Shown: positions 2,116 through 57,998 of the stretch, in pieces
Numbering within the stretch: position 1 is the first letter of the stretch
Layout of the letters: each line of letters opens with the position of its first letter
DNA from: Candidatus Bathyarchaeota archaeon
GTDB taxonomy: Archaea > Thermoproteota > Bathyarchaeia > Bathyarchaeales > Bathycorpusculaceae
DNA length: 64,000 nucleotides
Assembly: GCA_963707955.1 (NCBI GenBank)
Contig: OY970176.1
Location: forward strand, 736,001 to 800,000
Direction of reading: 5' to 3'
Notes under the pieces: model-generated
Told to the model about the DNA's origin: nothing
Databases searched by the model: none
Seen by the model: only the letters and a program-made list of their open reading frames with translations
Program-made: the position numbers and the translations under genes

Positions 2116-2208
2116 CAGCCTAAGCTCTCCTTGAGACGTCTGCAGACTCGTTCAGATCTGTGGACTCAAGGTCAAAACGGAGACATGTAAATCTTTTCGC
2201 AGCGCGCG

Positions 2209-33181: not shown

Positions 33182-33400
33182 CTTGTTTGACCTTCCTTTT
33201 GGAAGGCATTTATTGGAGGAAGTGGATAATAAACGTTTGAAGCTGCTCAGGCTATGATTGTTATTTCCTGATTTTCCATCTGATCCGCCTGCGCCCCACC
33301 TCTTTGGATCAATACTTCGCCTAGGTAGTCGTGTGGGACTTTCTGAAGACGGATAGAAGACCACCTGAGCCGATGAACGCGCGCATATTCAGCGATGATT

Positions 33401-34157
33401 CTAATGAGAAGCCCGTTGAATCCTTCTCTGCACTTTTTTCCAAGAATCCGTCACCAAGAAACTCTTCCATATCCTCGACCATCCTCACAAACTTGCTCAT
33501 GGGCACCGAAAACGAGAGCACGTTCTCCTGAACAAAGGGGCGTGCAGAAACATCAAACAATCCTATGACGGCTCTCGGACGACTGGAATCTTTCTCAAGA
33601 TATGGATATTGCACAATCGAAGAACACCCCGAACCGCTCGGAGTAAAAACGACGTTCGGCTCAGCCTCGTCGAAATTGGCAAGTGTAAAGAGCCCTGAAA
33701 AGGTATCAGGCCGAGCAAAGAAGATCACAACGTCTGGCTCATCAGACTGGTCATGCAGATCCCATCTCTTGAACACTATAAACCGAGCAGGAGCCCTGAA
33801 CAATGGCGTGTACTTGATCGCCTCAGCTACAACTTGAGGCGCCTTTTTGTAACGTTCACCTTTAACCTTCCCAAGAATTCCGCATGACAGAAAATACTCA
33901 AAATCGTCCCTGATTTTTTCACGAAAACCTAAGTACCTTTTGCCGCCGCAGCAGCCAATCGACTCTGAGACGAAACACAAAGCTTTTCCTTTCCTCACTA
34001 AGGACAGGGCTGCGATTATGCACATAGGAACCGAACCATGCTTGACCAGTTCCGCGTGTCCTTCTTCATCTGTGTAATAGAAAACGATAGGAAGCTCCGC
34101 ATCATCGGAATATCTTTTCCAGAGGTCAATAAAGTCTTCTTTGAACTTTATGTCCAT
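33401..34157 (-). CDS. DUF169 family protein with a frameshift near the 3' end
   Basis: GCCGGKRYLG, GERYKK, SGL.TLANF, SGCS and FDVSARP; expected tail FLVTDSWKKVQRRI is in another frame after ~33462. Confidence 0.75.
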
Positions 34158-34338
34158 AAACAGATCCTGCGCCTCCAGTGATGAGTTTCATGTCAGCAAT
34201 ACAACTTTCTGTAATGCATGGGCGCCTCGAATTTAAGCAAAATAGGCGGCAGCAACGGGATCGTTTTTTTGGGGTTACGCATGAATTCCTAAGCATACAG
34301 GGTTGCAGAAGTAAGCCTGCGCGCGCTCGCCGAGCCAG

Positions 34339-34383
34339 AATATGCAGTTCGGTACTATAGCTATCAATCCATATCCATTTAAT
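34339..34383 (+). promoter_or_regulatory. Conserved promoter element, copy 1 (upstream of GT2 gene)
   Basis: AATATGCAGTTCG-GTACTATAGCTA-TCAA-TCCATAT-CCAT-TTAAT; TTAA starts 52 nt before ATG 34431. Confidence 0.75.
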
Positions 34384-36966: not shown

Positions 36967-37297
36967 ACCAAGCTGAGCATCTACCATGGCGCGATCCAGA
37001 TACGGATAAGAATGTTGGAGCATGCGCCATAGAAAAAAGAGAGGTTTTGTGGGTGACATCTCCATTTGTCCCACGTTCAAATCCCAGTTACCCGTGCCCT
37101 CATAGGCTATAGTGTGAGTTCGCGTATAGATGCGAGCGCGCGCAAGTCGATTTTCAGGGCTTGCAGATTTCGTTCCTGGTGAGACTTGAACCCTTTTGGT
37201 TATCTGCCTACCGAATGTGGTTTTTTTACCGGAAAAGTTGGGTTGGGTTCCATTCAGATGTTTTCAGCGTTCTCTTGTTGAGTTCAAGTCGAAGCTT

Positions 37298-40646: not shown

Positions 40647-41363
40647 ATGTGTGCAACATTGAATGAATCGACACTCTATCGAACTCTGGCAAGCTCGTCC
40701 AGAATTGAGATACTCAAGCTACTCCAGAGAGGGCCTCTAAGCGTTGAAGAGATGTCTCAGAAACTCAACCTCCAAGCCATAACGATTCGTCATCATCTGC
40801 AAGCTTTGACAGAATCCGGGATCGTGGAATACCATGAGGAGCGGTCAGGAACTGCTGGTAGACCGCGGGCTTATTATAGCTTAGTTAAGACATTTCCATC
40901 AACAAGTTTCCCAAAGCGACTGTACCAGTCTCTCTCGGAATATCTGATAAGCGGTATGGTTGAAGAGTTCGGCGTAGACAAGGCAAGGATTTTTCTAAGG
41001 AAGATAGGGATAGCTTCAGGAGAAGCTGCAATACGAGAATTGAAATCGAAACACAACATAAAATCCTGGTCGCTGGATGATTATGAGAGATACGTGATCG
41101 GAGAATTTCTCGAACGAGAGGGAAACGAACCAGAAATAGTCGAAACTACAAACAACAAAATTGTCTACAGACTGCATAACTGCCTCTTCCGAGAACTATC
41201 AGCTAAAATGCCTGAGATGATGTGCGACATTCTTCACGAAAGTTTCCACGAGGGAGTATCAAAGGCAATGGGAAAAGACGTGAAGATAACGCGATCCACA
41301 TGCATGGGACATGGCGACCAATACTGTGAGCATGTCTGCGTCTGGGGTCGACAAAAACGTTAG
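40647..41363 (+). CDS. ArsR-type wHTH plus Cys-rich V4R-like sensor domain regulator
   Basis: SRIEIL, IRHHL..L...G.V and GRPR; HNCLF, MCD.LH and CMGHGD.YC. Confidence 0.88.
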   Translation: MCATLNESTLYRTLASSSRIEILKLLQRGPLSVEEMSQKLNLQAITIRHHLQALTESGIVEYHEERSGTAGRPRAYYSLVKTFPSTSFPKRLYQSLSEYLISGMVEEFGVDKARIFLRKIGIASGEAAIRELKSKHNIKSWSLDDYERYVIGEFLEREGNEPEIVETTNNKIVYRLHNCLFRELSAKMPEMMCDILHESFHEGVSKAMGKDVKITRSTCMGHGDQYCEHVCVWGRQKR

Positions 41364-41846: not shown

Positions 41847-42749
41847 CTATGCCTTGGCTGTAACCTGAATTGGCGTTTCGAGCTTGTCAAGAATTTTTTT
41901 CAGTGACACTATGTTTCTGCCTAGGCCTAGCTCTTTTGGGTTCAGTCCGAAGGCGATCCCCATGAGTTGAGTGAAGTAGAGGATTGGCATATCAATCTTT
42001 AGGTCAAAACGGTTTTCTACCGCTTTTTGTTTAGCATCAAGATTGAAGTGACACATTGGACAAGGAGTGACTACGCAGTCAGCCCCTATCGCTTTCGCGC
42101 TCAACAGCAAGTCTTTGGTCATTTCAAGCATGACGCTTTCATCTGTCAGAACCAATGAAGCACCGCAACATCGCGTCTTGTCACGATAATCTAGGCTTTG
42201 AGCTCCAACGGCTTCAATAATTCTATCCATGGATTTAGGGTGTTCAGGGTCATCGAAACTTCTTACCTGCGGAGGTCTTACGAGCAGACAGCCATAGTAA
42301 GGTGCAACCTTCAAACCTTTCAAGGGTACTTTAACCTTTTCAGCTATCTTCAACGGTCCCACGTCGTTGATTAGCACGTCGAGATAGTGTCTAATTTTGA
42401 CGTCGCCTGTGAACTTCAACCCTGCGTCGTTGATTATTTTGTCAACTGCCCCTTTGAGGTTAGGATCTTCGTGAAGCATTTTGCTCGCTCTTGACAAAGT
42501 AAAAAAACAGGCGCTGCATAGGGTTACTATGTCCATGTTCATGGTTTCTGCGAGCGAAAAGTTTCTGGCAGATAGAGACAGAGACAGTTCTGGGTTGTAG
42601 GCGTGAACAGCGTCAATGGACCCGCAACAGTTCCAATCTGGTATTTCGATAAGTTCTATTCCGAGGACTTTGTTCACAGCCATGCATGACATTCCATATT
42701 CGTGTGCAGATGCCTCTACCGAGCATCCTGGAAAATACGCGTACTTCAT
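41847..42749 (-). CDS. hdrB: Heterodisulfide reductase subunit B
   Basis: Two CCG domains: YFPGC / WNCCG / CSAC and YYGC / RCCG / CPMC. Confidence 0.95.
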   Translation of the reverse strand: MKYAYFPGCSVEASAHEYGMSCMAVNKVLGIELIEIPDWNCCGSIDAVHAYNPELSLSLSARNFSLAETMNMDIVTLCSACFFTLSRASKMLHEDPNLKGAVDKIINDAGLKFTGDVKIRHYLDVLINDVGPLKIAEKVKVPLKGLKVAPYYGCLLVRPPQVRSFDDPEHPKSMDRIIEAVGAQSLDYRDKTRCCGASLVLTDESVMLEMTKDLLLSAKAIGADCVVTPCPMCHFNLDAKQKAVENRFDLKIDMPILYFTQLMGIAFGLNPKELGLGRNIVSLKKILDKLETPIQVTAKA

Positions 42750-43338: not shown

Positions 43339-45726
43339 TTAATCGCATCCGAGGTTTTCGGCGATTTTCTTCCTTTTTTCTTCGGGCAAGCGTCCTAGAG
43401 TGGATAGTCTCTGGTTTAGAGTTTCGAAAAGGTTAACTATTTTGTCATACTGGGGCAGAGTCGTTGTTGTTGAAGCTAGCCTAAGCGATTCAACCCCGTA
43501 CTTGCCTAATTCCTTCTTCAAATTGATTACGTGATCTCTGATGAGGTCTTCTCGGAAGGGACTATCATCGCCCTCTATGAAAATTACCCCGTCGGCTCCT
43601 GCCGCAAAGGCTTGCATTACGTGTCGGGTGCCTACTCGTCCTGCACTCGGCACGGTTATGATTCTGACATTCGGTGTGTAGTTCACTCTTGTTTGCCCAG
43701 CTAGGTCGGCTGAACCGTATGCGGTAGTCTTTTCAAGGAAAGCTAGAACTCTCGGCTCATCTCCCTCTCCTTGGCAAGTGGCTTGAATCTGAGCTGTCAA
43801 TTGCTCGTTCGTCAAGTTTTTGAGATCTATTGCCTCAGTGGGACACTTTGGCACACATATGCCGCAGCCATTGCAAAGGATCGAGTCAATTACGATGCCT
43901 TTGCGTTTGGCACTTATTGCCTTCGTCGGACAAGCTTGTATGCACACACCGCATGCGTCACATTTCTCGAGATTTACGTACGCTTTTTCCGGTGAAACAG
44001 CGATTTCACCTTTGCCCAAAAACGTAGCCACCTTGGATGCGCATGCCATAGATTCGATCGTGGTCTCTCTGATGTCTTTGGGTCCAACAGCACATCCGGC
44101 TAAGTATATGCCCTCCATCTTCGTGTCCACTGGTCTCAATTTATGATGTCTTTCCAGAAGGAAACCGTCTGGTCCAACGTCTATTCCGAGCTTTTTAGCC
44201 AGTTCATGGGAACCATAGTTGGGAAGCAGTGCTGGGCTAAGAACGACCATGTCGAATGTTTCCTCAATCTGCCTCCCCAGAACAGTGTCTTCAGCTCTCA
44301 CGGTCAAGTTTTCGCCGTTCGGAAAGACTTCGGCTGCCCGGCCTCGAATAAACTTGACACCAAGTTCTCTTGCATGCGAGTAAAATTCTTCATACCCTTT
44401 GCCATGCGCCCTTAGGTCCGTGTAGAATATCCAAGGCTCGGCTTCTGGGTTCGTCTTCAGAAGCAACAGAGAATGCTTAATGGCGTTCATACAGCCTATT
44501 TTACAGCAATAGTTTATCCCTTTGTCCATTCGGCTGCCGACGCAGAGTATGAAGGCGACTTTCTTCGGCATCTTCCCGTTTGAAGGTTGATGCAGACCTT
44601 GCAACATAAGACGCTCAAACTGCAGATTCGTCACAATGTCAGGGTGTAACCCGTAACTGTATGGACCGAAAACGTCGTGCCCATCAAAAACCTCTTTTGA
44701 GAGCTTCGGATCAAGCTGTTGATAGCCCGTGCACGCAATAATGGCTCCAACGTTCAACTCAATCATCTCCTCTTTTTGATCAAATGCTATGGCTCTGCCC
44801 TTGCAAAACCGTTCACAAACCCTGCAGACACCCTTGTTGAAAAAGAGACACGCATCTTTGTCTATCAAGTAAGTGTTAGGCACTGCTTGCTTGAAAGGCA
44901 CATAAATCGCCTTCTCCTGTTGCAGCCCTTCTTCGAACTTGCTCGTCTTTTTGGATGGACAAACTCTCGCGCATTCGCCGCACGATATGCACTTTTCTGC
45001 GTCAACGAATCGGGGCTCAACGCGCACTTGGACTTTGTAGTTACCAGGAGAACCTTCAATCGAGACGGGTTCCGCCATCGTGATAACGTCGATGTTTGGA
45101 TGTTGAGACACATAGACCATTTTTGGGGTCAAAATGCATTGGGAGCAGTCCAACGTTGGAAAGGTCTTGCTCAGTTGGGACATATGGCCGCCGATGCTGG
45201 GATTTCTTTCGACCAAGTGTACCTTGTATCCCTTGTCGGCTAATTCAATAGAAGTTAATATGCCAGCGATGCCACCTCCAATAACAAGAACATCGCCTGT
45301 AAGTGGAAGGCTTTTTGTTTCCAAAGGCTCCAGAAAACGAGCCCGTGCCACTAACCCGCTGATGAGAGCAATCGCCTTGTCTGTTGCCGATGCCTTCGTA
45401 TCATGAACCCAACTACATTGTTCACGAATATTTGCCATGTCCAGCAAGTAAGGATTAAGCCCGGCTGATTTGGCTGCTTCCCTAAAAGTCTCAAGATGCA
45501 TGCGTGGTGAGCATGAAGCTACGATAACTCGGTCGAGTTTGAGTTCCTTGATGTCTTTTTTTATCATGTCTTGTCCAGGTTTACTGCACATGTAATCATA
45601 ATTCTCGACGATTTTGACCCCGTCTAGTTTGGAAATAGCGTCCTTGACCTTTGTCACTGTCACGGTATCGCTTATGTTCCCCCCGCAGTGGCAAATGAAC
45701 ACTCCAATCGATGCATTCTTCGGCAT
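43339..45726 (-). CDS. hdrA: HdrA fused to a Cys-less MvhD-like domain
   Basis: CHCG, GGGIAG, FPTLDC, ferredoxin inserts and CVGSR; C-terminal AYGSADLAG and SAGRV; start placed at MPKN after a GGTG RBS. Confidence 0.92.
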   Translation of the reverse strand: MPKNASIGVFICHCGGNISDTVTVTKVKDAISKLDGVKIVENYDYMCSKPGQDMIKKDIKELKLDRVIVASCSPRMHLETFREAAKSAGLNPYLLDMANIREQCSWVHDTKASATDKAIALISGLVARARFLEPLETKSLPLTGDVLVIGGGIAGILTSIELADKGYKVHLVERNPSIGGHMSQLSKTFPTLDCSQCILTPKMVYVSQHPNIDVITMAEPVSIEGSPGNYKVQVRVEPRFVDAEKCISCGECARVCPSKKTSKFEEGLQQEKAIYVPFKQAVPNTYLIDKDACLFFNKGVCRVCERFCKGRAIAFDQKEEMIELNVGAIIACTGYQQLDPKLSKEVFDGHDVFGPYSYGLHPDIVTNLQFERLMLQGLHQPSNGKMPKKVAFILCVGSRMDKGINYCCKIGCMNAIKHSLLLLKTNPEAEPWIFYTDLRAHGKGYEEFYSHARELGVKFIRGRAAEVFPNGENLTVRAEDTVLGRQIEETFDMVVLSPALLPNYGSHELAKKLGIDVGPDGFLLERHHKLRPVDTKMEGIYLAGCAVGPKDIRETTIESMACASKVATFLGKGEIAVSPEKAYVNLEKCDACGVCIQACPTKAISAKRKGIVIDSILCNGCGICVPKCPTEAIDLKNLTNEQLTAQIQATCQGEGDEPRVLAFLEKTTAYGSADLAGQTRVNYTPNVRIITVPSAGRVGTRHVMQAFAAGADGVIFIEGDDSPFREDLIRDHVINLKKELGKYGVESLRLASTTTTLPQYDKIVNLFETLNQRLSTLGRLPEEKRKKIAENLGCD

Positions 45727-45738
45727 AAATACACCAGC

Positions 45739-45766
45739 CATGTCGATAAGAGATTCTATCGACATG
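45739..45766. promoter_or_regulatory. Perfect inverted repeat in the hdrA leader
   Basis: CATGTCGATA-N8-TATCGACATG between the TATA box (45790-45797) and the RBS. Confidence 0.65.
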
Positions 45767-47450: not shown

Positions 47451-49964
47451 CTATTCCTCGCTGCTTGAAGCCACAAGCATCGTGGACGCAATCTTGGGTG
47501 TCTCTCGCACGATTGGCTCTGCTTTTTTCTTCAACATGTTCTCCAATATTGGACGCAGTTTCTCGTTTTCTGCTTTGATCTTGTCCTTGCCTAATGCGTT
47601 CATCTGTGCGTTGACTTCTTTGACGAGTTCAGCAAACTTTACGCCTTCTGCAGCAGAAACGTACTCTACGCGAAGCCTCTCTGGACTCAGTCCAAGCTTC
47701 TCCAGCATCTTCGCCAAAGCCTCCATTCTGGCTTTCATCCTTCCGTTTCCGCTTATGTAGTGGCAATCGTAGGGTAGGTGGCATGCTCCAATCAAGACCA
47801 TTCCGACTCCCTGTCTGAAAGCTTCAAGAACGAAGTCTCGATCAACTCTTCCCGAGCACATGACGCGAACAGGTCTTATCGTTGGAGGATACTCAAACCT
47901 GCTCGTCCCCGCTAGGTCTGCGCCCGCGTAACTGCACCAGTTACACAAGAACGCCAAGATCTTTTCTTCCGGATTTGTCTCCAGGGCTGCTCCTATCTGA
48001 GCGAGTATTTGATCGTCTGTGAAGTGCATTTGTGTTATTGCGTTTGCTGGACATTCCGCAACGCATGTTCCACATCCATGGCACATGGCTGTTATTACTT
48101 GAGCTGGCTGTTTGTCATCGATTTTTATTGATTTGTGGGGGCATCTTTCCGCGCAAATGCCACATTTGGCTGTCAGGTTTCTGCACTTCAGTGGGTCCAC
48201 GACGGAAACTATGGGTTCGATCTTCCAAGTGGGCTTTGAGATTACGGTTGCTGCCCTTGACGCTGCACCACTGCCCTGCGAAACGCTGTATGGAATGTCC
48301 TTTAATCCTTGACATGCGCCTGCTAGGAATATTCCATCGGTAGGTGCATCCATCGGTTTGAGCTTAGGGTGGCTTTCCATGAAAAAGCCGTCAGCCCCAC
48401 GTGTTAAGCCTAATATTCGCGCAATTTCCTCTGTGCCTTTCTTAGGTGTGGCCGCTGATGCGAGAACAACCATCTCAGACTCAATTTCTATGGGTTGCCC
48501 CAGCATCATGTCCTCGGCGTGCAGAATCAAGTTCTTTGTCTCTGGAACCTCTACGATTCGGCTTACGCGTCCGTGAACAAAGGTTACGCCAAGTTCTCTT
48601 GCACGTTGATAGAATTCTTCATAACCTTTAGAGTTGCTCCGCATGTCCATGTAGAAAATGTAGACTTCAATGTCTTCCTTGTACTTCTCTTTAAGCTGAA
48701 TCGCATGTTTCAAAGTGTACATGCAACAGAAGTTTGAACAGTACGGATATTTCTTTACATCACGCGAACCGACGCATTGAATGAACGACACGGTGTGTGG
48801 TTTTTTTCCATCTGACGCCCTGATGACCTTCCCGCCTGTTGGACCAGCAGCCAGTATGAGCCTCTCAAACTCTAGCGACGTGATCACATTCGGGTATTTA
48901 CCATAGCCATAAAGCGGATTGTCGTACGGGAGGTACAAATCGTAGCCAGTCGCTACGATTATCGCACCTGCTTCGATCTCGATTTCTTCTGGTTTCTGCT
49001 CAAAATTTATGGCCTGCCTTGCTCCGCAAGCGTCAACGCACTTGTAGCATTCGATGCAGTAATCCCTGTTTATCGTGTAGACCAGCGGAACCGCTTGATC
49101 GAAAGGAGCGGATATTGCCTTTCTAACACCCAAGTTCATGTCCCACTCATTTGGATATTCAATGGGACAGGTTTCTTTGCACTCACCACATCCGGTGCAG
49201 TTGTGAGCGATCACGTATCGCGGGTTTTTCCGAATTTTGACTCTAAAATTACCAACGTAACCTTCTACGCTCAGCAAATCGGCATAATCTATTATTTCAA
49301 TGTTAGGATGTCTTTTTACGTCAACCATTTTGGGGCCTTCGATGCATATGCTGCAGTCAAGAGTTGGAAACGTCTTGTCCAGTTGCGCCATGTGACCCCC
49401 AATGCTTTCACTTTTCTCGAGCAAATACACTTTGAAGCCCATTTCAGCTAGGTCGAGCGAAGCATTCATTCCAGCTATGCCGCCGCCTATGACTAAGGCC
49501 TTGTGCGTTACAGGGACCTCTATCTTCTGCAGAGGCGATAGCAGTCTCACCTTCGCCACGGCCATTTTTATCAAGTCTTTGGCTTTCTCAGTTGCAGCTT
49601 CTGGAGTACTTGAGTGACACCAAGATGCGAATTCACGAATGTTTGCCATTTCAAAGAGAAACGGATTCAAGCCGGCATCTGAGACCGTCCTGCGAAATGT
49701 AGGTTCGTGCATTCGCGGTGAGCATGCTGCAACCACGACACGATTGAGCCTATGCTCCTTCACGGCCTTTTTGATCTCTTCTTGTCCGGGGTCAGCGCAT
49801 GTGTAGCGGTTGTCCTTCACATAAACAACGTCTGGTAGAGTCCCTGCAAATTGGACAAGTTCCTTTATGTTTAGAACTCCAGCTATGTTTAGACCGCAGT
49901 GGCAAACGAAAACCCCTATCTTCAGGTGTTCAAATTTCTTTTCGATGAGTTGGATACAAATCAC
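47451..49964 (-). CDS. hdrA: HdrA-MvhD fusion with intact [2Fe-2S] ligands
   Basis: CHCG, GGGIAG, FPTLDC and YCSNFCC; CNWC, MCSGR and CHLPYDCHY; true start uncertain (GTG 49964, ATC 49955 or ATG 50000). Confidence 0.93.
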   Translation of the reverse strand: MICIQLIEKKFEHLKIGVFVCHCGLNIAGVLNIKELVQFAGTLPDVVYVKDNRYTCADPGQEEIKKAVKEHRLNRVVVAACSPRMHEPTFRRTVSDAGLNPFLFEMANIREFASWCHSSTPEAATEKAKDLIKMAVAKVRLLSPLQKIEVPVTHKALVIGGGIAGMNASLDLAEMGFKVYLLEKSESIGGHMAQLDKTFPTLDCSICIEGPKMVDVKRHPNIEIIDYADLLSVEGYVGNFRVKIRKNPRYVIAHNCTGCGECKETCPIEYPNEWDMNLGVRKAISAPFDQAVPLVYTINRDYCIECYKCVDACGARQAINFEQKPEEIEIEAGAIIVATGYDLYLPYDNPLYGYGKYPNVITSLEFERLILAAGPTGGKVIRASDGKKPHTVSFIQCVGSRDVKKYPYCSNFCCMYTLKHAIQLKEKYKEDIEVYIFYMDMRSNSKGYEEFYQRARELGVTFVHGRVSRIVEVPETKNLILHAEDMMLGQPIEIESEMVVLASAATPKKGTEEIARILGLTRGADGFFMESHPKLKPMDAPTDGIFLAGACQGLKDIPYSVSQGSGAASRAATVISKPTWKIEPIVSVVDPLKCRNLTAKCGICAERCPHKSIKIDDKQPAQVITAMCHGCGTCVAECPANAITQMHFTDDQILAQIGAALETNPEEKILAFLCNWCSYAGADLAGTSRFEYPPTIRPVRVMCSGRVDRDFVLEAFRQGVGMVLIGACHLPYDCHYISGNGRMKARMEALAKMLEKLGLSPERLRVEYVSAAEGVKFAELVKEVNAQMNALGKDKIKAENEKLRPILENMLKKKAEPIVRETPKIASTMLVASSSEE

Positions 49965-49984
49965 CTGCGTTCTAGAGTGTGATG

Positions 49985-50002
49985 TTATGATAAATATCAT
50001 AA
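49985..50002. promoter_or_regulatory. Palindromic operator upstream of hdrA-mvhD
   Basis: TTATGATA-AA-TATCATAA with perfect 8-bp arms. Confidence 0.6.
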
Positions 50003-50276
50003 AAAGTATATTAACGTTTACCCTAGCTTGGCTTAATTTAATGATTCTCCCGGTTCTCAAATGCCCCATACAATTGGTCACGGCGACGCAACAAAAACGC
50101 TCAAAAGAAACGCAAAAGCGGATTAATAACGTGCCAATTAAGCTTATGGTTAATCGCGGCCGTGCCAGTTCGCACGTAGGTGCGGACACCCTTGGAGGGT
50201 CAGGCATTTGCCCGCAAGACTTTCAAGGTGTGAAGGGTTAGCCATACTTTGAAAGGCATTTGGAGAACTGAAGGCT

Positions 50277-51146
50277 ATGAGGACAGAGGATCTTAAGAAG
50301 GTTGTACTGAAGATGTATGGAAGCAGGGAGTTTTATGGCTATGAGGTTCACAAGGAGCTTGCTTCTGAAAAGGTTGATGTTGGTATCAGTCGTTTGTACA
50401 GAGTTCTCACTGAGATGCTACGGGAAGGATTGCTTGAGGGTCGATGGGAGAAGGGTCAGCTTGGGCCTCGGAGAAGAGTGTACAGGATCGGCAGGAAAGG
50501 GAAGGAGGAGCGTAAGAAGCTTCTTTTAGAGGCGATTGACACTGTTCACGGGTTTTACAGCGAGTACCTGCTCAACCTACCTGCCGAGACCAATGTTCTC
50601 AATAGCGCGGTCAAACTACTGTCCAGCAACGTGGATAGAAAAGGAGAGATCGCATTCATTTCTCCTGCGTATTCGGTGATGCACGAGAAAATATTGCACA
50701 AACTGCACAACGAAATGCCCCAAGCGAAGATATACTTCGTGAAGCCCGCCTCATTAACCGTTGACTTGAACTTTGACAACCTATGGTTTTTGAATGGGAC
50801 TTGCGATAATATTCCGCTAAAAGATGGTTACGTTGATCTCGCGATCATAGCCGAAGCTCCAAAGAAGGATTGTCTGGAGGAATCCTTGACTGAAGTGCAC
50901 AGAGTGCTAAAGCAAGATGGCACGCTGACAATAGTAATACCAACAATTCTAGTGTGCAAAAACGAAGACCCTCTGTCAATAGGCAACTTCATCGAAAAAT
51001 ATGAGCATGAAGCGTCAGAAAAGCGTGATTACGTAGAGGCTGAGACTCTTAAGGCGCTAATGCAGAAACTATTCAACAATGTCGAAGAAAAAAGAATTGT
51101 CCACATGACATATTTCTTAGCCTCTCAACCGCGTCTTCTCCATTAA
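50277..51146 (+). CDS. PadR-wHTH / class I methyltransferase-fold fusion, copy 1
   Basis: FYGYEV, SRLYRVL.EM...GLL..RW and GPRRRVYRI; IPLKDGYVDL and EVHRVLK.DG. Confidence 0.88.
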   Translation: MRTEDLKKVVLKMYGSREFYGYEVHKELASEKVDVGISRLYRVLTEMLREGLLEGRWEKGQLGPRRRVYRIGRKGKEERKKLLLEAIDTVHGFYSEYLLNLPAETNVLNSAVKLLSSNVDRKGEIAFISPAYSVMHEKILHKLHNEMPQAKIYFVKPASLTVDLNFDNLWFLNGTCDNIPLKDGYVDLAIIAEAPKKDCLEESLTEVHRVLKQDGTLTIVIPTILVCKNEDPLSIGNFIEKYEHEASEKRDYVEAETLKALMQKLFNNVEEKRIVHMTYFLASQPRLLH

Positions 51147-51200
51147 TGATCAGGAAGGCCAAGGCGACTTTTGTTACTTGCGAATCTCAAACCGGCGGAC

Positions 51201-51245
51201 TATATGCCATTCAGTACTATAGCTATTATTCAATAGTTGCTTAAG
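51201..51245 (+). promoter_or_regulatory. Conserved promoter element, copy 2 (upstream of the 47-aa ORF)
   Basis: TATATGCCATTCA-GTACTATAGCTA-TTAT-TCAATAG-TTGC-TTAAG; TTAA starts 50 nt before ATG 51291. Confidence 0.75.
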
Positions 51246-51290
51246 AGTGCGTTTTGCTTTCTTGAATACAAAACTTGGAGTTGAAAAAGA

Positions 51291-51434
51291 ATGAACAAGC
51301 GCGCGCGCAAACAGAAGCCAAAAGTGGACACAAGCGGGTTGAGAGAGAGATCTGCTGGAAGAGATGCCGAGGGGCCGTTAAAATTCTTCTTGGATTGGCT
51401 GCACAGCCAAGAGCTAAGCTCGGAACAGCTTTGA
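51291..51434 (+). CDS. Unannotated 47-aa basic protein
   Basis: MNKRARKQKPKVDTSGLRERSAGRDAEGPLKFFLDWLHSQELSSEQL; GGAGTTGA RBS; expected distance from the conserved element. Confidence 0.55.
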   Translation: MNKRARKQKPKVDTSGLRERSAGRDAEGPLKFFLDWLHSQELSSEQL

Positions 51435-51598
51435 CTATGGCCCAGCAGCCGTAACTGTGAACATTCACTATGCCGCTGTGTGTTTGGCTGCGCGGCTTTC
51501 GCCAAATCAAGCAATGACTTTACTGCCTTTGAGATTTCCTACTTGAATAAGAATCACAACTTTCCTTAAGGCAAGGCTTGATCGATCGAGAGTCTTCA

Positions 51599-52219
51599 TC
51601 ACATGACGGCCAAGTAGGCCATTACGAATATCATTATGATTTGAAATATTGTCTGACTTCCGGCATAGTAGATGTTTCTCATGCCAAGTTTCACAACCTT
51701 CTCCGTGTTCGGGTTTGCCTTTCTCAGCTCCAATAGGACGCGAACTTCATTAGGCAATATAAGGGCAAAGCCTTGGACCGACAAGATAATGACGATGATG
51801 ATGGCAGCGATTATTGGTGTGGTGTAGAAACTTATCCCCATACGATTGGCCAGGGAGATTCCAGCGGTTATGCCCACCGCGGCCAACCCTGGCATGAAGA
51901 ACAGCATCATAGGCACAAGTTTCTTTATGACCTCAACGCGGCTTTGCGGCGAGAGACCACGCATCACCCTACTCATCACAAGACCCATGAACAGGTCTAT
52001 GCCCGTCCACGTTCCAGCGATAAGCACATGAACATAATTCAACAAAAGGAGACTTCCACTCAACAATGCCGCGATCAACGCGATTATGGGGACGGCCAAA
52101 GTCAGATAGCTACTCAGCCCCACGATTGCGCTGTCTTTGCTAGCTAAAGTTGTTGTATTCGGAGGTTTTGTCACGTATCCTTCCTCGTGCTGAGCTACCG
52201 ATATCTTGTTCCATCGCAA
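51599..52219 (-). CDS. Hypothetical membrane protein (CopD/DUF2269-like four-helix bundle)
   Basis: LNYVHV..AGTWTG.DLFMG and LPNE motifs; about five TM helices; start uncertain. Confidence 0.75.
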   Translation of the reverse strand: MRWNKISVAQHEEGYVTKPPNTTTLASKDSAIVGLSSYLTLAVPIIALIAALLSGSLLLLNYVHVLIAGTWTGIDLFMGLVMSRVMRGLSPQSRVEVIKKLVPMMLFFMPGLAAVGITAGISLANRMGISFYTTPIIAAIIIVIILSVQGFALILPNEVRVLLELRKANPNTEKVVKLGMRNIYYAGSQTIFQIIMIFVMAYLAVM

Positions 52220-52275
52220 CCCATATTTGGAATTTTCGATACCGACATATGGAGGAAAGTCTCATCCCTTGCTCG

Positions 52276-52821
52276 CTACCCCAACCAACCAAGAGATTGT
52301 GGGTGTGGTAGTTTTCGTTCTTTCCAGTAATATGTGTGATTGCAGTAGCCGTCTCCTTGCATCACAGTCTTTGTCCTTTTCAGTCTTATTTTTGGGTTGT
52401 AGGCTCTTGCCGTCGCAAAGTCACGGCGGCAGCATATGACGTAGCCAAGCTTTGTTGCATTCATTTCCTTGAAGGTCTTAGCCCATAAACACTCCGTTAT
52501 GTGGGCGCTCAATTTCACGGGCGTTTCTTCGGGATAGGTCACTGTCAACGCATGCGTCCAAAAGGGAGATTCGTTTTCCTCCTTTACGAAGCGTTTAAAG
52601 TCTTCAAACTTCTTAATTGGCTTCTTGGAGAGCTGGTTCTTGACAGATTCTACCCCAGACTTTTCAGCCCACTTTTTGATTATTCCGAAAGCTCTTTTTC
52701 TGCCCAGAGCATGCTCGAAAACCTCAGCCAATCCCACCGTGTCCCTGTATCGGTCCTGAAAAAACTGCTCATAAGTCAGCACCATTTTTCCTTGAAACTT
52801 GTGCGGAGTCTTCTTATTCAT
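52276..52821 (-). CDS. L-2-amino-thiazoline-4-carboxylic acid hydrolase family protein
   Basis: ITECLWA..F, LGY..CC..DF and L.RTKT.MQG..YCNH.Y. Confidence 0.88.
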   Translation of the reverse strand: MNKKTPHKFQGKMVLTYEQFFQDRYRDTVGLAEVFEHALGRKRAFGIIKKWAEKSGVESVKNQLSKKPIKKFEDFKRFVKEENESPFWTHALTVTYPEETPVKLSAHITECLWAKTFKEMNATKLGYVICCRRDFATARAYNPKIRLKRTKTVMQGDGYCNHTYYWKERKLPHPQSLGWLG

Positions 52822-52991
52822 GCCCCCTCAACAACCACATACTGGTTCTGATCTAGGGGATAAAACTTTACATCAACCGCGCGCGCCAAATTCTATCCTC
52901 TCTCTATCGTTCATGTTCTTGAACGCGCGATCACGATCATTTTATACGGCCACCGATGATACAGTATTAGCCAGAAAACGGGTGATATGGA

Positions 52992-53490
52992 TTGACGGAT
53001 CTTTGGCAGCTGGTGGGTCTGTCTATCTTGAATTTTCTGCATCTTTTGGCGACGGTTGTATGGGTTGGTGGAATGGCAACTAACATTCTGGTTACACTAC
53101 CATCTACTAGGGAAGTACTGGAGCCAGCAGTTTTTGGCAGGTTTATCGGAGCGATAATGAAAAGGTTTCGCCTTATCGCATACGTAAGTATCATAACTCT
53201 CCTTGTTTGCGGCGTTCTTTTGACACTGGTGAATGAGAATTTTGTAGGTGGGCCATTTGATAACGCTTGGAGTCAACTTATCTTAGCCAAACACTTATTT
53301 GTGGCCGCTTTGGTTCTGCTCACTGTCTACTCCTTCGAGGTGTTAGCTCCTAAAGTAGCCAAGTTAGCTGCGAAAGGACCTTCGCCCGAGACTGCTGAAG
53401 ACTCAAAAGCTTCAATTAAGACTGGCTTCCACTGGATTCGTGCTAGGCCTTGTCATTCTAATGCTGATAGCAATAGTGCTTTCTCTTTGA
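52992..53490 (+). CDS. CopD/DUF4149-like membrane protein with a +1 frameshift near 53391
   Basis: FLHLLATVVWVGG and L.AKH; the last TM helix LLKTQKLQLRLASTGFVLGLVILMLIAIVLSL is in the shifted frame. Confidence 0.78.
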
Positions 53491-53849
53491 GCGCGCGCAG
53501 ATATTTGCTCAAAACCAGGAACGCGAATAATCATAAGTATGAAGAGCTAGTCGTCTTGCAGTTTGCCCGCGCTTGAACCTTTCCTGTGATTGGAACCAAC
53601 ATTCCTTGTTCAACTAGAAAGGCATGATTTGCATCTGGAAAAACTCATTTGTTATGAAGCCATATGTTTCACACTCAAGGACTATGAAGACTTTCTTGCT
53701 TCCTGAGTTTGGGCAGCTAAACTTGTTCAGTCTTCTCACCCATTTTCATTATCGTTGGTTTTCGCGGGCGTTAGTTTGCGATGGTTAATATGAGAGCAAA
53801 GCTTAATCTAGCGCCTTGTTCTAAGGCGATTAGGTTGGAGGTGGATTCT

Positions 53850-54335
53850 TTGAGTCTTTTTGGGCATAAGGCAGTACCTAAGGTTCAGTTGACTTATGAT
53901 GTGATGATGAAATGCAACTGCGGAATGTGTCCGGTCCAAGCCAATAGTGCGTGTGCCAAACCTAAGATAATGGCTAGAGACGAGATGATGAAGAACCCGA
54001 GCTCTGAAATAAAGAAGATCATGACCCCTGGAATGATGCAGAACCTGGAAATGATAAAGAACATGAGCCCTGAAACGATGAGGAGCATGTCAAGAGAACA
54101 GATGAAGAAAATGAGCGATGAAATGATGAAGAACACGCCAAAAGAACAGATTTCGGCGATGATGCTTAAAGTGGAAGATATGCCTGGGCCTTACTGTGCT
54201 AACGGCGTTGCAGTCTGTAAAGACCTAGATTTCAGCAAGATGTGCGTTTGCAGCGGATGCCAAGTTTTCAAGGACTTTAGTCTCATGAAAGGTAAACCAA
54301 TGAGCTACTATTGTAAAGACGGCAAGGCTACGTAG
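53850..54335 (+). CDS. DUF2769-like Cys-rich protein with a Met-rich insert
   Basis: CNCGMCP...C, YC..G...C and CVCSGC.V...YYC..G; GGAGGTG RBS before TTG 53850. Confidence 0.82.
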   Translation: MSLFGHKAVPKVQLTYDVMMKCNCGMCPVQANSACAKPKIMARDEMMKNPSSEIKKIMTPGMMQNLEMIKNMSPETMRSMSREQMKKMSDEMMKNTPKEQISAMMLKVEDMPGPYCANGVAVCKDLDFSKMCVCSGCQVFKDFSLMKGKPMSYYCKDGKAT

Positions 54336-54393
54336 TTTTCTTAGCGCTCTTCACTTTGATTGCATATACTGCATTCCTGATTTTTATGTTTCG

Positions 54394-55317
54394 TCAACGA
54401 GCGCGCGCGCCATTGCTGGAGAAATGTGGTTCCGATGCCGAGAAGATGGTCATGTTAACAATCTCCGTTTCTTCAACCTTTCGGAAAAAATTCTCCAGCA
54501 ACGCCCGAAAGGCTTTCTTATTCGCACGTTTACCCAGTTCCAGTGCTTCATATTCATGTTTCTCTATAAAGTCGCTTATCGTCAACGGGTCCTCGTATTC
54601 GCGGACGAAAACTGTGGGCATCAAGATCACGAGCCTTCCACTTTCTTTTAGTACTCTGCCCCACTCTCTCAGTGCTGTCTGCACAAGATCGTTTTCGGGA
54701 ATGTTGGCGACCACTATCAGGTCGGCATAACCATCTTTTAATGGAACTTTCACGTAGTTGCCATCCAAGAAAAACAAGTTGTCCAGACGCCGGTACATCT
54801 CCACTAATCTTGGCTTCACCAGATAAATCTTTCCCCTACGTACTTTACTAATAAGACAGCATATCATTCTCTCGTGCATTGCGGAGTATTCAGGGACAAT
54901 GTACACGATGATGTGTTGGTCCATTAATTCCTCTCCAAGTAGCCTGCAGACGTTATCAAAAACGTTGATCTTTGAGGGAAGACCCAACAAGTATTCACCA
55001 TAGAAGGCGTCGATGGTCTCGATAGCGTCTAAGAAAATCCTGTTAAGCTCCTCCCTCCCCTTCCCGCTAAGCCTGTAAACCCTCTTCTCGGGTCCAAACT
55101 GGCTCTTCTGCCAACGACTCTGAAGCAAGTGCTCTCGCAGCATCTCGTTTAGAATCCTGTACAAACGGCTGATCTCAACTGTAACGCCTTCAGACGCAAG
55201 TTTCTTGTGAATTTCGTACCCGTAGAATTCTTTACCTCTAAACATCTTCAGGATATTCCTTTTAAGATCCTGAGCTCTCACGGCTGAAGTCTCCATACTA
55301 GAATTCGGGCTCTCCAT
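54394..55317 (-). CDS. PadR-wHTH / class I methyltransferase-fold fusion, copy 2
   Basis: EFYGYEIHKKL, SRLYRILNEM and GPEKRVYRL; VPLKDGYADL and EWGRVLK.SG. Confidence 0.88.
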   Translation of the reverse strand: MESPNSSMETSAVRAQDLKRNILKMFRGKEFYGYEIHKKLASEGVTVEISRLYRILNEMLREHLLQSRWQKSQFGPEKRVYRLSGKGREELNRIFLDAIETIDAFYGEYLLGLPSKINVFDNVCRLLGEELMDQHIIVYIVPEYSAMHERMICCLISKVRRGKIYLVKPRLVEMYRRLDNLFFLDGNYVKVPLKDGYADLIVVANIPENDLVQTALREWGRVLKESGRLVILMPTVFVREYEDPLTISDFIEKHEYEALELGKRANKKAFRALLENFFRKVEETEIVNMTIFSASEPHFSSNGARAR

Positions 55318-55360
55318 CCGACGTCACCTAGATTCTACATTTTCAATGTTAAAGCCGCCG

Positions 55361-55405
55361 TTTAAGGACCTATGGAATCGCAACTATAGTACTAATTAGC
55401 ACATA
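55361..55405 (-). promoter_or_regulatory. Conserved promoter element, copy 3 (upstream of regulator copy 2)
   Basis: Minus strand TATGTGCTAATTA-GTACTATAGTTG-CGAT-TCCATAG-GTCC-TTAAA; TTAA starts 48 nt before ATG 55317. Confidence 0.75.
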
Positions 55406-55499
55406 GGCTAAAATTACAGCGCGCGCTTGAAAAAATGGGTGAACTATTTGCGGGCCGTCCGCTTAGAAGCCTTAACGTTAGAACCTGAAGCACCTTTTT

Positions 55500-55940
55500 G
55501 CTTGGCGGCTCCTGCTAGTATACAAGTAAACATAATTCACGCTCTTCCACGATTTTGTAAACACTTGCATCTAATAGATCAGTGCGGGACGTTTGACATG
55601 CACACGCGCTATTACTAGACCGTGATTTGCACATGCTACTGAGAACATTGGTCTTGGAAGAGTATAGTGAGAAAGTACTCACTGTAGAACCTGCGGGCTG
55701 TCACAATCGCGTCCAAAAGAATCGTTTCACGTCCCTTCTTTCCTTTCTCGCCGACCCTGCACATCCTTTTTCGAGGCTCTTCTCCAACCAGCCTCAAGCA
55801 GGCAACATCTCAATAAGAACTTTAAGAACTCTACAAGTGACCGATGTCAACCTTAATCCTTTCTGAAGCAAGCTCCTTCTGAGCCGCATAACCACAAACT
55901 CTGCTTCCAAACATCCTCGCGCTAACCTCAGTGGTTCGAT
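55500..55940 (-). pseudogene. Decayed fourth copy of the PadR-methyltransferase-fold gene
   Basis: Minus strand 55915-55861 aligns by eye with 50312-50369, and 55691-55635 with 50551-50606; many indels and a large internal deletion. Confidence 0.85.
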
Positions 55941-55947
55941 TTCGATT

Positions 55948-56826
55948 TCATAGTGATAAACGGGGAGAGCGAGGTTCTGATGCTAAGAAGAGCACCATGT
56001 GAACAATCTTTGTTTTTTCAATCTTTTGGAAAAAATTTTTCAACGATGACTGAAGATATTTCCCATCGGCGTGCTCATTTATCTTCATAGTGTCATGTTC
56101 ATACTTCTCAATGAAGTTGCCGATTGTCAAAGGGTCTTTGTACTCCTCTACGAAAATCGCCGGAATCAAGATTGCCAATTTCCCATCTGCCCGTAACACC
56201 CTGCACCACTCTGTTAACGCTGTCTCCAGAAAATCCTTTTTGGGGATGTCTATAACCACCAAGAGATCGACAAAAGAGTCCTTTAATGGGATGTTTTCGT
56301 AGGTGCCGTCCATTAAGGTCAGGTTGTCAGGACACGGGTCAACGAGCACCGATCTCGGCTTCACGAAATAGATCTTCCCTTGAGAATCTCTTCTTTGAAG
56401 ATTGCAGATCATCCTCGCGTGCATCACGGAATAACTTGGGGTAACGAAGGCGATGTTGCCCCGTCCCCTGAGTTGACGGGCAAAGTGCCGCCGGACACTT
56501 TCGAAAACGCTGCGCTCAGCTGGAAGATTCAGCAGATACTCTTCGTAAGAGGCATGGATAGTCCTGATGGCGTCTTGAAGAATTCCGTCGAGCTTCTTCC
56601 TTCCCTTTTCACCAAGCCTGTACACTCTCTTCTTTGGTCCGAGTTGGCTTTTCTCCCAACGACTCTCAAGCAGTTTCTCTTTAAGCATCTCGTTCAGGAT
56701 CCTATAGAGGCGGCTGATTTCAACCTTGATGTCTTGAGACGCGAGCTTTTTGTGAACCTCATACCCGTAGAACTCTCTGCCTCTAAACATCTTCAAGATA
56801 TTCTTCTTAAGATCGTCCGTTTTCAT
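55948..56826 (-). CDS. PadR-wHTH / class I methyltransferase-fold fusion, copy 3
   Basis: Start placed at MKTDDLKK by homology to copy 1; same motif set. Confidence 0.88.
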   Translation of the reverse strand: MKTDDLKKNILKMFRGREFYGYEVHKKLASQDIKVEISRLYRILNEMLKEKLLESRWEKSQLGPKKRVYRLGEKGRKKLDGILQDAIRTIHASYEEYLLNLPAERSVFESVRRHFARQLRGRGNIAFVTPSYSVMHARMICNLQRRDSQGKIYFVKPRSVLVDPCPDNLTLMDGTYENIPLKDSFVDLLVVIDIPKKDFLETALTEWCRVLRADGKLAILIPAIFVEEYKDPLTIGNFIEKYEHDTMKINEHADGKYLQSSLKNFFQKIEKTKIVHMVLFLASEPRSPRLSL

Positions 56827-56842
56827 AGACTTTAAGCCTCGG

Positions 56843-56887
56843 TATATGTATTCGGGTACTATAGCTAAAAGTCCATATATGCTTAAT
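56843..56887 (+). promoter_or_regulatory. Conserved promoter element, copy 4 (divergent region between regulator copy 3 and the surface protein)
   Basis: TATATGTATTCGG-GTACTATAGCTA-AAAG-TCCATAT-ATGC-TTAAT; TTAA starts 45 nt before ATG 56928. Confidence 0.75.
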
Positions 56888-56927: not shown

Positions 56928-57998
56928 ATGAACAAACGAAATAATGCTGCAGTCTTACTTGTCTTCCTTGCAACCATCTTAGTATTGTCTATCGCCAATT
57001 TCAACGTCACAACCGTAAAGGCAGCGGCGCCGCCAAGCATCACGCTCCTCCCACCTGCTGGACCTGTCGGAATACCCATTACAGTTAACGGCAACGGTTT
57101 CGCGCCTGGAGCCGATATAAGCCTGACTTGGTTCGGAAACACTGTTGATGTTCCAGGCATCGCGGGCCACGTAGCCACGTACACTATAAAGAGCGGAATC
57201 ACAACTGATCAAAATGGCAACTTTACCACAACCATCATTTCACCAAGCGACTTCTCCGATATCCCACACCAAGTCAACGCCACCCAAAACGGCATCGGAA
57301 CAGGAATAATTAATGCAACTTTCACTACTGTGTCAACTATGCATCTAAGTCCCCAACCCGCCACTTACGCAAACGGACAGCAGATTTTCCTCAACATCAC
57401 TGGAGGACCACTTGGAGCGGCTGCTCTCCCGATAACTGGTGCGAGCGAGGCAGAAGTCTTAAAGTTCACTTATGACAACGTGATGTGGGGTTTCGACACT
57501 TCTCACTTGAGTACAGAAGGACCAGTTGCAACTGGCGGATTCATCGGATGGGACGTTGGAGGCAACATATCGATACGATTCACAGCAACCGGAGAAGTAG
57601 GCATACACACTATTAGAGCTTATGTAGGTAGGGAAACCGTGCCGATATGGTTATCTTGTGAAATCGGAGGCGAAGTAAGCTTCAACATAACGGGTCCCAG
57701 CTCGGACACACAGACAATCCTAAACGATTTGAGCAACATAGACGCCAAAATAGTCAGCATCCAAGGTGACGTAGCCACGATCACGACCAACGTAGGAACT
57801 ATAAGCGGTAATGTTACCAGCATAAGCAATGGCATGGCAACTGTTAATACAAGTCTCGGAACTCTAACTCTGTCAGTTGACGGAGTAAAAAGCTCAACGG
57901 ACAACAGTGTCAACTACGGCCTAGGCGCATTGATACTTTCTGTCATCGACCTTGTAATCCTGCTTGCCGTCGCTGCCCTTGTGCTAAGAAAGCATTAA
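56928..57998 (+). CDS. Membrane-anchored cell-surface glycoprotein
   Basis: Signal peptide; Ig/IPT-like start (ITLLP.AGPVG..ITVNG.GF); Thr/Gly-rich; repetitive stalk; C-terminal TM followed by RKH; about nine N-x-S/T sequons. Confidence 0.85.
   Translation: MNKRNNAAVLLVFLATILVLSIANFNVTTVKAAAPPSITLLPPAGPVGIPITVNGNGFAPGADISLTWFGNTVDVPGIAGHVATYTIKSGITTDQNGNFTTTIISPSDFSDIPHQVNATQNGIGTGIINATFTTVSTMHLSPQPATYANGQQIFLNITGGPLGAAALPITGASEAEVLKFTYDNVMWGFDTSHLSTEGPVATGGFIGWDVGGNISIRFTATGEVGIHTIRAYVGRETVPIWLSCEIGGEVSFNITGPSSDTQTILNDLSNIDAKIVSIQGDVATITTNVGTISGNVTSISNGMATVNTSLGTLTLSVDGVKSSTDNSVNYGLGALILSVIDLVILLAVAALVLRKH

Follow-up and report, generated by a model that had tools for sequence, protein, structure and literature searches.

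The window analysed here is a stretch of 64,000 nucleotides (nt) from the genome of a Candidatus Bathyarchaeota archaeon (assembly GCA_963707955.1, contig OY970176.1, forward-strand positions 736,001 to 800,000), and coordinates are counted from its first letter unless the genome or another locus is named. Three paralogous genes, called A, B and C, lie within 6.5 kb of it. Each codes for a protein with an N-terminal PadR-type winged helix-turn-helix (wHTH) domain and a C-terminal domain with the fold of class I S-adenosylmethionine (SAM) methyltransferases, in which the SAM-binding motifs have been lost. A 23-bp element with inverted-repeat arms, found at five places in the genome, accompanies these genes. 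The host genome consists of 1 contig of 2,346,764 bases (97.2% complete, 5.8% contaminated).

Three paralogous PadR-type genes and a decayed fourth copy

The three genes and the remnant of a further one are arranged as follows:

50277-51146, plus strand: paralogue A, 289 amino acids, PadR wHTH and degenerate methyltransferase-fold domain (open reading frame, Pfam)
54394-55317, minus strand: paralogue B, 307 amino acids, same two-domain layout (open reading frame, Pfam)
55948-56826, minus strand: paralogue C, 292 amino acids, the chain used for the structure model (open reading frame, Pfam)
about 55610-55930, minus strand: decayed fourth copy, remnant of an A-type PadR domain between C and B, with 3 in-frame stops

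The open reading frames (ORFs) of A, B and C were found where an earlier note on this DNA had placed three paralogues of about 290-310 amino acids. Orthologues of B start with GTG, 12 codons inside the annotated start of B; the ORF of C is open as far as 56973, and its homologues begin at MKTDDL. Pairwise identity among the three proteins was 47-54%, with 60-71% in the N-terminal 99 residues and 41-47% in the C-terminal domain.

The N-terminal domain matched the Pfam family PadR (PF03551) above its curated cut-off of 27 bits in all three proteins (A, 45.2 bits, E 9.7e-12; B, 49.9 bits, E 3.2e-13; C, 49.6 bits, E 3.9e-13), which bore out the PadR-like wHTH that the earlier note had read in each of them. 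The best PDB sequence match of this part was the PadR protein 4esb_A (E 6.7e-8). Beside PadR, the Pfam wHTH models matching at E ≤1 were F-93_WHD and FUR, and at the same threshold no match to the ArsR-type models HTH_5 or HTH_20 was found in A, B or C. The NCBIfam threonine-synthase model PRK05638 covered the PadR domain with its positions 372-439. The recognition helix, ISRLYR(I/V)L(N/T)EML, is near-identical in A, B and C, and its residues R39 and Y41 are invariant in an alignment of 40 sequences.

In the C-terminal domain Pfam aligned only positions 44-95 of the 95 positions of Methyltransf_11 (A, E 6.8e-4 over model positions 44-94; B, E 2.5e-4; C, E 1.9e-3), and the cut-off of 21.2 bits was passed only by B (22.0 bits). 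The sequence motifs previously proposed for this domain were compared with the translations. Both I(A/V)(F/Y)xxPxYS(V/A)MH and DPL(S/T)I.(N/D)FIEK.E fit A, B and C; IPLKDG.VDL is exact only in A, since B reads VPLKDGYADL and C reads IPLKDSFVDL; and E..RVLK..G fits A and B, C having RVLR.

A search of the host genome returned A, B and C as its only full-length copies of the family, together with the decayed copy (E 3.9e-8, 41% identity to residues 12-101), which at the DNA level is most like paralogue A (repeats I1, I2, I9 and I11). Two related loci, L007 and L008 (96-97% identical), retain C, the same remnant and B.

A word-indexed search gave 275 homologues at E ≤0.001, and an exhaustive profile search with the C-terminal domain gave 285 cluster representatives at E ≤0.001, 100 at ≤1e-10 and 46 at ≤1e-30. 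Source annotations call the homologues hypothetical proteins or just PadR or HTH regulators, and a precomputed PF08241 match was present in a minority of the 120 listed. Full-length matches have about 280-315 amino acids with the C-terminal domain from about residue 100; because the domain begins at residue 100-119 in 140 of 157 proteins, it is essentially always fused. A distant subfamily (P0189-P0218) carries P-x-Y-D-P-L-x-C-Y-P and Y-V-V-K-P-P at the corresponding places, and the proteins tested from it had a PadR domain (9/10) plus a half-match to Methyltransf_11.

The family is rare. At E ≤1e-20 it was present in 9 of 300 other sampled genomes of the class (10/301 with the window's genome) and in 0 of 48 other genomes of the same taxonomic family, and a sample of 400 other genomes from the whole phylum contained no member. 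Each positive genome had one match, and three occurred only in the window's genome. Three peptide patterns searched against 185,579 species representatives yielded 21 loci, most of them labelled Bathyarchaeia, with single loci labelled Heimdallarchaeota, Thorarchaeota and Thermoplasmatota. Full-text literature searches for PadR proteins joined to methyltransferase domains turned up no relevant study, as judged by title or abstract. These results agree with the earlier proposal of a distinct archaeal family with no characterised example, as it belongs mostly to Bathyarchaeia and is known only by automatic names. From a survey of architecture and copy number in Bathyarchaeia, which had been suggested, the fused architecture emerged, and multiple copies elsewhere did not (9/300, one each).

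A quick maximum-likelihood tree was calculated with IQ-TREE from 56 rows, namely every fourth of P0001-P0120 of suitable length, 20 locus proteins, A, B and C, and 3 outgroup rows, with support by the Shimodaira-Hasegawa-like approximate likelihood ratio test (SH-aLRT). A, B and C fell into three separately supported subclades, each with orthologues from other genomes, and B and C were sisters at 94% SH-aLRT. The A-type subclade contained the orthologues L009:4949 and L010-L012, and the B-type subclade L007:7556 and L009:6001. In L009 an A-type and a B-type gene stand in tandem, followed by a secreted-protein gene, and the remnant and B of the window mirror this tandem. Because they belong to separate subclades with orthologues and local decay is seen, A, B and C are, as judged from the tree and the remnant, old paralogues and not a recent burst. 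The earlier wording of an expanded family is misleading, as there are three old subclades and the other searched genomes are single-copy.

Fold of the C-terminal domain and loss of its SAM-binding motifs

An AlphaFold2 model of C was built from the 40-sequence alignment (predicted local distance difference test, pLDDT, 81.2; predicted template modelling score, pTM, 0.66). It has the order wHTH, long helix (residues 73-99) and seven-stranded alpha/beta domain. The model was compared with 48,161 PDB representatives; SAM methyltransferases dominated the 50 listed structural matches, and residues 87-286 matched 1ve3_B (PH0226) with Z 16.4 and a root-mean-square deviation (rmsd) of 3.8 Å over 177 residues. 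A model of the C-terminal domain only (pLDDT 79.9, pTM 0.79) again matched methyltransferases, with Foldseek E 1.2e-8 and TMq 0.60 for 3l8d, and the nearest named ESM Atlas clusters were all Methyltransf_11/UbiE-type. With the whole chain the best Foldseek matches were the COMT-type O-methyltransferase 3p9i_A (E 2.7e-11) and Rv2258c (5f8e_A, E 2.7e-10), at TMq of only 0.41-0.49 and rmsd of 12-18 Å.

The class I Rossmann methyltransferase fold proposed by the earlier note was established by these comparisons, in which the Z score to 1ve3_B, the strand order and Foldseek agree; the AlphaFold and Foldseek check that it had recommended did not turn up a fold of another kind. The C-terminal domain is derived from a class I methyltransferase of the small Methyltransf_11/UbiE type.

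The sequence likeness to methyltransferases is restricted to strands 3-5. A profile of 22 C-terminal domains matched 5 PDB chains, all methyltransferases, only over profile positions 60-128, and when the profile was aligned by hhalign with one canonical methyltransferase (L016) only columns 65-120 aligned. No Pfam model matched the first half of the domain in A, B or C.

At the place of the GxGxG of canonical enzymes, the models show the loop TPSYS and helix A coming after strand 1 (NIAFV), and strand 2 (KIYFV) ends with K-P at the canonical position of the ribose-binding acid; both positions were assigned from the strand order of the models, not by residue-level superposition. They were surveyed with the domain profile over 269 stored proteins, of which the 157 near-full-length ones gave 158 aligned rows. 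GxGxG was present in the strand-1 loop of 0 of the 157 near-full-length domains. The loop reads (T/S)P.YS.MH, with Y kept in 106/158 rows, S in 133/158 and H in 102/158. Of the 21 rows with a G-x-G, 20 have it before strand 1; the distant P0247 alone carries G-S-G within the loop. Strand 2 ends with K in 129/158 rows, followed by P in 140/158, with D at the P position in 2/158. In the lid after strand 5 (DPLTIGNFIEKYEHE), D231, P232, F238 and E240 are invariant in the 40 sequences. The replacement of the glycine-rich motif I, which the earlier note had described for three proteins, holds for the family as a whole, and so does the loss of the acidic residue that follows strand 2. Since both GxGxG and the acid have been lost, the domain should not be an enzyme and is unlikely to be a sensor of SAM or S-adenosylhomocysteine (SAH).

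Three very distant proteins, P0245, P0247 and P0248, combine PadR and methyltransferase-like parts with G-D at the end of strand 2; P0245 and P0247 may resemble the ancestor, and all three are perhaps nearer to a SAM-binding ancestral form. One family member, L024:6001-6765 (255 amino acids), has kept an open frame without strand 1 and helix A, and a motif site lies past its stop.

A rare 23-bp element and the genes beside it

By reading the upstream sequences of the family genes by eye (n=25), a shared element was spotted, CTATAGTAC-N7-CAYATAG, which is followed by TGAGG and, 8-10 nt later, by the start codon. It has two arms in inverted orientation, CTATA and TATAG, 13 bp apart. In 14/25 upstream regions the distance from its start to the start codon is 36-41 nt, and the arms are intact in 13 of those; this placement was seen in C, the C-type gene of L007, L013, L014 (where the element has a 6-nt spacer), L015, L017, L018, L019, L023, L025 and L026. 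The L020 element stands at the same place and is degenerate in the first arm. The A-type genes of L010-L012 have there a shortened variant, in L010 and L012 without the second arm, and carry the full element at -120 to -122, the B-type genes have the element inverted and further upstream, and in some other loci it is likewise further upstream or inverted. When short perfect palindromes of the upstream regions were counted blindly, none was common to more than 3 loci.

An RNA hairpin was considered and, on inspection of the sites, rejected. In the site listing the arm changes CACCTAG (L026), CTATCGCAC (L020), CATATAT (L022) and CATATAC (C) are uncompensated in the other arm, and because the changes between loci are not compensatory the element is not an RNA stem. 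Rfam at gathering thresholds gave 0 matches in the whole window.

Across the whole genome the pattern was matched 5 times at ≤2 mismatches, and its reversed control 0 times. A weight matrix was then made from 13 instances, all from other genomes, and used for scanning the 2.35-Mb genome; five sites scored 29.5, 27.0, 24.5, 21.4 and 21.4, and the next best 15.6. The reversed genome had 0 sites scoring ≥20, as had each of three mononucleotide shuffles, of which the maximum was 17.9. Four of the five sites are in the window, and three flank A, B and C:

56842-56864, minus strand: site 1, CTATAGTAC-N7-CATATAC, score 27.0; starts 38 nt before the start of C and precedes the divergent secreted-protein gene by 64-86 nt
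55384-55406, plus strand: site 2, exact pattern, score 24.5; in inverted orientation with respect to B, 67-89 nt before its ATG
51200-51222, minus strand: site 3, exact pattern, score 29.5, the top score of the genome; about 54 bp past the stop of A
34338-34360, minus strand: site 4, 1 mismatch, score 21.4; between a DUF169-rubrerythrin pair (minus strand) and a GT2 glycosyltransferase gene (plus strand)
genome 1162725-1162747: site 5, score 21.4; 15 nt before a CMD/AhpD-like gene, counted from its longest ORF

Site 2 has the same placement in L007, L008 and L009. Site 3 is part of a 44-nt copy of the C promoter region, similar to 56843-56886 (repeat D3). A weak site at 37103-37135 (score 12.8) was set aside, being below the shuffle maximum. 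In the related loci (217,605 bp) every matrix match scoring ≥14 was within about 2.3 kb of a regulator gene.

The pattern at ≤1 mismatch occurred in 18/301 genomes of the class sample, that is, in 9/10 regulator-positive genomes (the exception being G081) against 9/291 regulator-negative ones, counts to which related genomes contribute that are not independent of one another; the reversed control pattern matched 22/301 genomes. Several positive genomes are also the records from which the element was read, and the new information in the co-occurrence lies mainly in the low rate among the negatives. In 4 of the 9 other positive genomes (G218, G117, G089 and G112) the site starts 37-40 nt upstream of the regulator, in three further ones it is on the contig of the regulator within 1 kb, and in G222 it is on another contig. 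Ten flanks of sites in regulator-negative genomes were searched and no family gene was found beside them; the only match, in L036, was weak (27-30% identity to residues 222-294). The sites of L038 and L039, inside ORFs, are probably due to chance. In L036 a threonine-synthase-like gene (1006-2265, plus strand, 419 amino acids) lies about 600 nt downstream of a near-exact copy of the element.

Three further features beside the paralogues concern the possible targets:

56928-57998, plus strand: secreted protein with a C-terminal membrane anchor, 356 amino acids, candidate target; divergent from C across 101 bp
51599-52219, minus strand: membrane protein, 206 amino acids, no Pfam family; conserved neighbour of A-type regulators
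51285-51435, plus strand: relic of the 5' end of a secreted-protein gene, a 47-codon ORF starting MNKR, just past A

The product of 56928-57998 has a signal-like N-terminus and a hydrophobic C-terminus, both read by eye. No convincing Pfam family was found for it, and a search of the ESM Atlas returned only hypothetical archaeal proteins with scores <0.9. Its homologues are divergent from or adjacent to the regulator in L009, L011, L012 and L013, and homologues of the 51599-52219 product adjoin the regulator in L009, L010, L011 and L012. The relic at 51285-51435 shares a 17-nt match (88%) with the start of the gene at 56928 (repeat D8), and the whole of 51200-51435 is a relic copy of the divergent promoter of C and the secreted-protein gene, including the 23-bp element.

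Sites outside the matrix set were also found before genes of this type. The one at L009:6912-6944 is 28 nt before a homologue of the secreted protein of the window, that at L024:6789-6821 is 63 nt before a Flg_new_2/dockerin protein, and that at L015:8268-8300 precedes by 63-95 nt the gene of an EB_dh protein, which begins like a signal peptide and is anchored at its C-terminus. In 13/18 contexts the adjacent gene has a signal-peptide-like N-terminus as judged by eye. In L018 a multicopper oxidase of the twin-arginine translocation (Tat) type is divergent from the regulator. SAM-cycle or methionine genes were found neither beside the five genome sites nor among 62 neighbour proteins of 17 loci. 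The decayed copy, the old paralogy, the rarity of the family, the 23-bp element with its few sites and the mostly secreted or membrane-anchored neighbours are new with respect to the earlier note.

Other genes of the region were recorded as well. The DUF169-rubrerythrin pair (32609-34157, minus strand) and the CMD/AhpD-like gene (genome 1162040-1162711; L032:1040-1486, minus strand) are both linked to peroxide defence, and in other loci rubrerythrin, FMN reductase and DJ-1/PfpI genes occur within a few kb of the regulator. Between A and B, 52992-53576 (plus strand) codes for a CopD-like membrane protein and 53781-54335 (plus strand) for a Cys-rich protein of 184 amino acids with a weak DUF2769 match and a Met-rich repeat run of four copies of a 48-nt unit (family D2); from these sequence features the pair looks like metal-handling proteins, possibly for copper. 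On the other side of A there are two large HdrA-like flavoproteins fused to an MvhD/FlpD domain (43339-45765 and 47451-50207, both minus strand) and a CCG-domain, HdrB-like protein (41847-42749, minus strand); the second HdrA-MvhD gene is divergent from A, and the true start of its ORF is probably downstream of the listed one at 50207. An ArsR-type (HTH_5/HTH_20) regulator of 238 amino acids with a long C-terminal part without Pfam family is encoded at 40647-41363 (plus strand), and its gene adjoins polyprenyl synthase, UbiA and UbiE-type methyltransferase genes.

Proposed function and comparison with known systems

With slightly better than even confidence, we propose that A, B and C are autoregulated PadR-type one-component regulators in which a non-catalytic, methyltransferase-derived domain serves as the sensor. 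The winged helix and the long helix that follows it (73-99) would form the usual PadR dimer, and this dimer would bind the quasi-palindromic candidate operator CTATAGTAC-N7-CAYATAG. Since the element lies over or just downstream of the regulator's own promoter, the proteins would probably repress their own genes. Divergent or adjacent genes, mostly with secreted or membrane-anchored products, would probably be controlled too. The near-identical recognition helices fit a single type of element and suggest that the paralogues share targets; because these helices are near-identical and the sensor domains differ, the paralogues may bring different signals to the same sites. The C-terminal domain is most likely a signal-receiving module, for which we infer ligand sensing, and the family-specific residues conserved in the former cofactor site (P-x-Y-S-x-M-H, K-P) and in the lid speak for binding as a function that was kept. 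What the earlier note observed was confirmed, and its interpretation is supported for the fold, the motif loss and the distinct family, ligand sensing being a prediction.

A bolder extension, which we regard as doubtful, is that the SAM pocket has been rebuilt and that the proteins form a so far unrecognised envelope or redox-stress switch of Bathyarchaeia, in which three sensors converge on the same few operators of secreted or membrane-anchored genes. The replacements K-P and P-x-Y-S-x-M-H hint at an anionic metabolite or a metal as the ligand. The neighbours pointing in this direction are multicopper oxidase or EB_dh haem-type proteins in some genomes, and the rubrerythrin operon and the AhpD-like gene in this one.

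Several observations speak against autoregulation through the element and against ligand sensing. A has no strong site upstream, its nearest one lying past its stop codon, and L027, L024 and the A-type gene of L009 have no upstream site. Exact matches occur in the regulator-negative genomes G109, G113 and G276 (88, 65 and 83% complete), with no family gene in the flanks examined, and the limited independence of the co-occurrence counts has to be considered. The operators of bacterial PadR/LmrR proteins read ATGT-N8-ACAT, unlike the candidate operator with its arms 13 bp apart. In the model the lid (residues 230-250) has a low pLDDT of 55-56. After the loss of GxGxG and the acid, SAM binding is unlikely rather than impossible.

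The element is inherited with the gene, and its conservation and co-occurrence may therefore reflect a promoter of the family or the site of another factor. Such a lineage-specific promoter element, or another factor's site, carried along with the cassette, would account for the fixed distance to the start codon followed by the Shine-Dalgarno-like TGAGG, for A lacking an upstream copy and for the three exact copies in genomes where no family gene was found. We give this explanation a low probability, as five sites in 2.35 Mb are no general promoter signal, the element also occurs inverted, at other distances and before neighbouring genes, and its two-fold symmetry is that expected of a site for a dimeric wHTH protein. 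Still further from the data is the possibility that the proteins are active methyltransferases of the COMT/Rv2258c type, with the winged helix used for dimerisation and substrate binding and not for DNA. The best whole-chain Foldseek matches are indeed plant and bacterial O-methyltransferases with an identical two-domain layout, but the whole-chain TM-scores reach only 0.41-0.49 at rmsd of 12-18 Å, the N-terminal domain is a bona fide PadR domain by sequence, the SAM motifs are gone and a rare palindromic element accompanies the genes, which makes an enzyme highly improbable.

Two other explanations concern what the C-terminal domain does. Dimers of COMT-type enzymes, the best matches of the whole chain, are formed by both domains together, and long PadR proteins have a helical C-terminal domain that acts as a dimerisation or docking module. 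The domain may in the same way bind no small molecule and serve for dimerisation, oligomerisation or protein docking; the lost cofactor motifs and the L024 protein, which is still open at 255 amino acids without strand 1 and helix A, are consistent with this. We hold such a scaffold to be unlikely, because the strong family-specific conservation is found precisely in the old cofactor loop and the lid, and the sensor domains diverge faster (41-47% identity) than the DNA-binding domains (60-71%), as they would with different inputs. A domain that still binds SAM or SAH in a non-canonical way, and so reports the methylation status of the cell, seems to us distinctly less probable again. It would be in keeping with the intact fold with all seven strands, with the Methyltransf_11-typical motifs retained from strand 3 to strand 5, with the G-S-G loop and/or the G-D at the end of strand 2 that the distant P0247 and P0245 keep, and with the precedent of SahR/SamR, SAH-responsive ArsR-family regulators of Proteobacteria (PMC4239095). 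Opposed to it are the absence of GxGxG from all 157 domains, the K-P in place of the ribose-binding acid and the first half of the domain without a Pfam match. Neither the five genome sites nor the 17 annotated loci have a methionine or SAM-cycle gene beside them, and since the neighbours have no SAM-cycle link, a SahR-like regulator is not indicated.

If A, B and C are the ligand-responsive PadR-type repressors that we propose, they would represent a kind of regulator of which we could find no example for the uncultured Bathyarchaeia. Fusion of a DNA-binding head to a disabled enzyme is a common route to new sensors, of which few, to our knowledge, are known in archaea. With its three proteins, its 23-bp candidate site and a very small candidate regulon (five sites), the family is a testable set and offers an in vitro entry to gene regulation in this lineage. 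It also shows cleanly a methyltransferase fold whose second half was kept while the cofactor site was rewritten, and can inform how the specificity of Rossmann-type pockets changes. Annotation pipelines label it only as a PadR family regulator, and for most members the second domain is overlooked.

Among known systems, the PadR proteins (PF03551; 4esb, 4esf, 6abt, and LmrR 3f8b) match residues 1-99, and a long helix comes after the wing, which is also the case in short PadR proteins. In known PadR proteins the chain ends with this helix or adds a small helical domain, whereas here a methyltransferase fold of 190 residues follows. The Methyltransf_11/UbiE-type proteins (1ve3 PH0226, 3l8d, 1vlm and 3dlc) have the closest fold and share strands 3-5 including E..RVLK..G; no sequence similarity to them is detectable in the domain's first third, which corresponds to strand 1, glycine loop, helix A and strand 2 with its acid and has other conserved residues. 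The COMT-type and Rv2258c proteins (3p9i, 4pgh, 1zg3 and 5f8e) likewise have an N-terminal winged helix and then a class I methyltransferase, but they are enzymes with an intact SAM site, and Pfam finds PadR in A, B and C, with no match to Methyltransf_2 or a COMT dimerisation domain at E ≤1.

The effector domain of SahR has a methyltransferase fold, and A, B and C resemble SahR/SamR in joining a winged-helix DNA-binding domain and a methyltransferase-like effector domain in one chain. Autoregulation through a palindromic site, here predicted, would be a second likeness, as far as these regulators are described in PMC4239095, where their palindromic sites stand before SAM-cycle genes. The SahR/SamR analogy drawn by the earlier note stood for the architecture and failed for the ArsR head, the SAM motifs and the SAM-cycle targets: the wHTH of A, B and C is PadR and not ArsR, their SAM/SAH-binding motifs are lost, their hosts are archaeal instead of bacterial, and their candidate targets, in place of ahcY, metK, metH and metF, are genes for membrane or secreted proteins and a few for redox defence.

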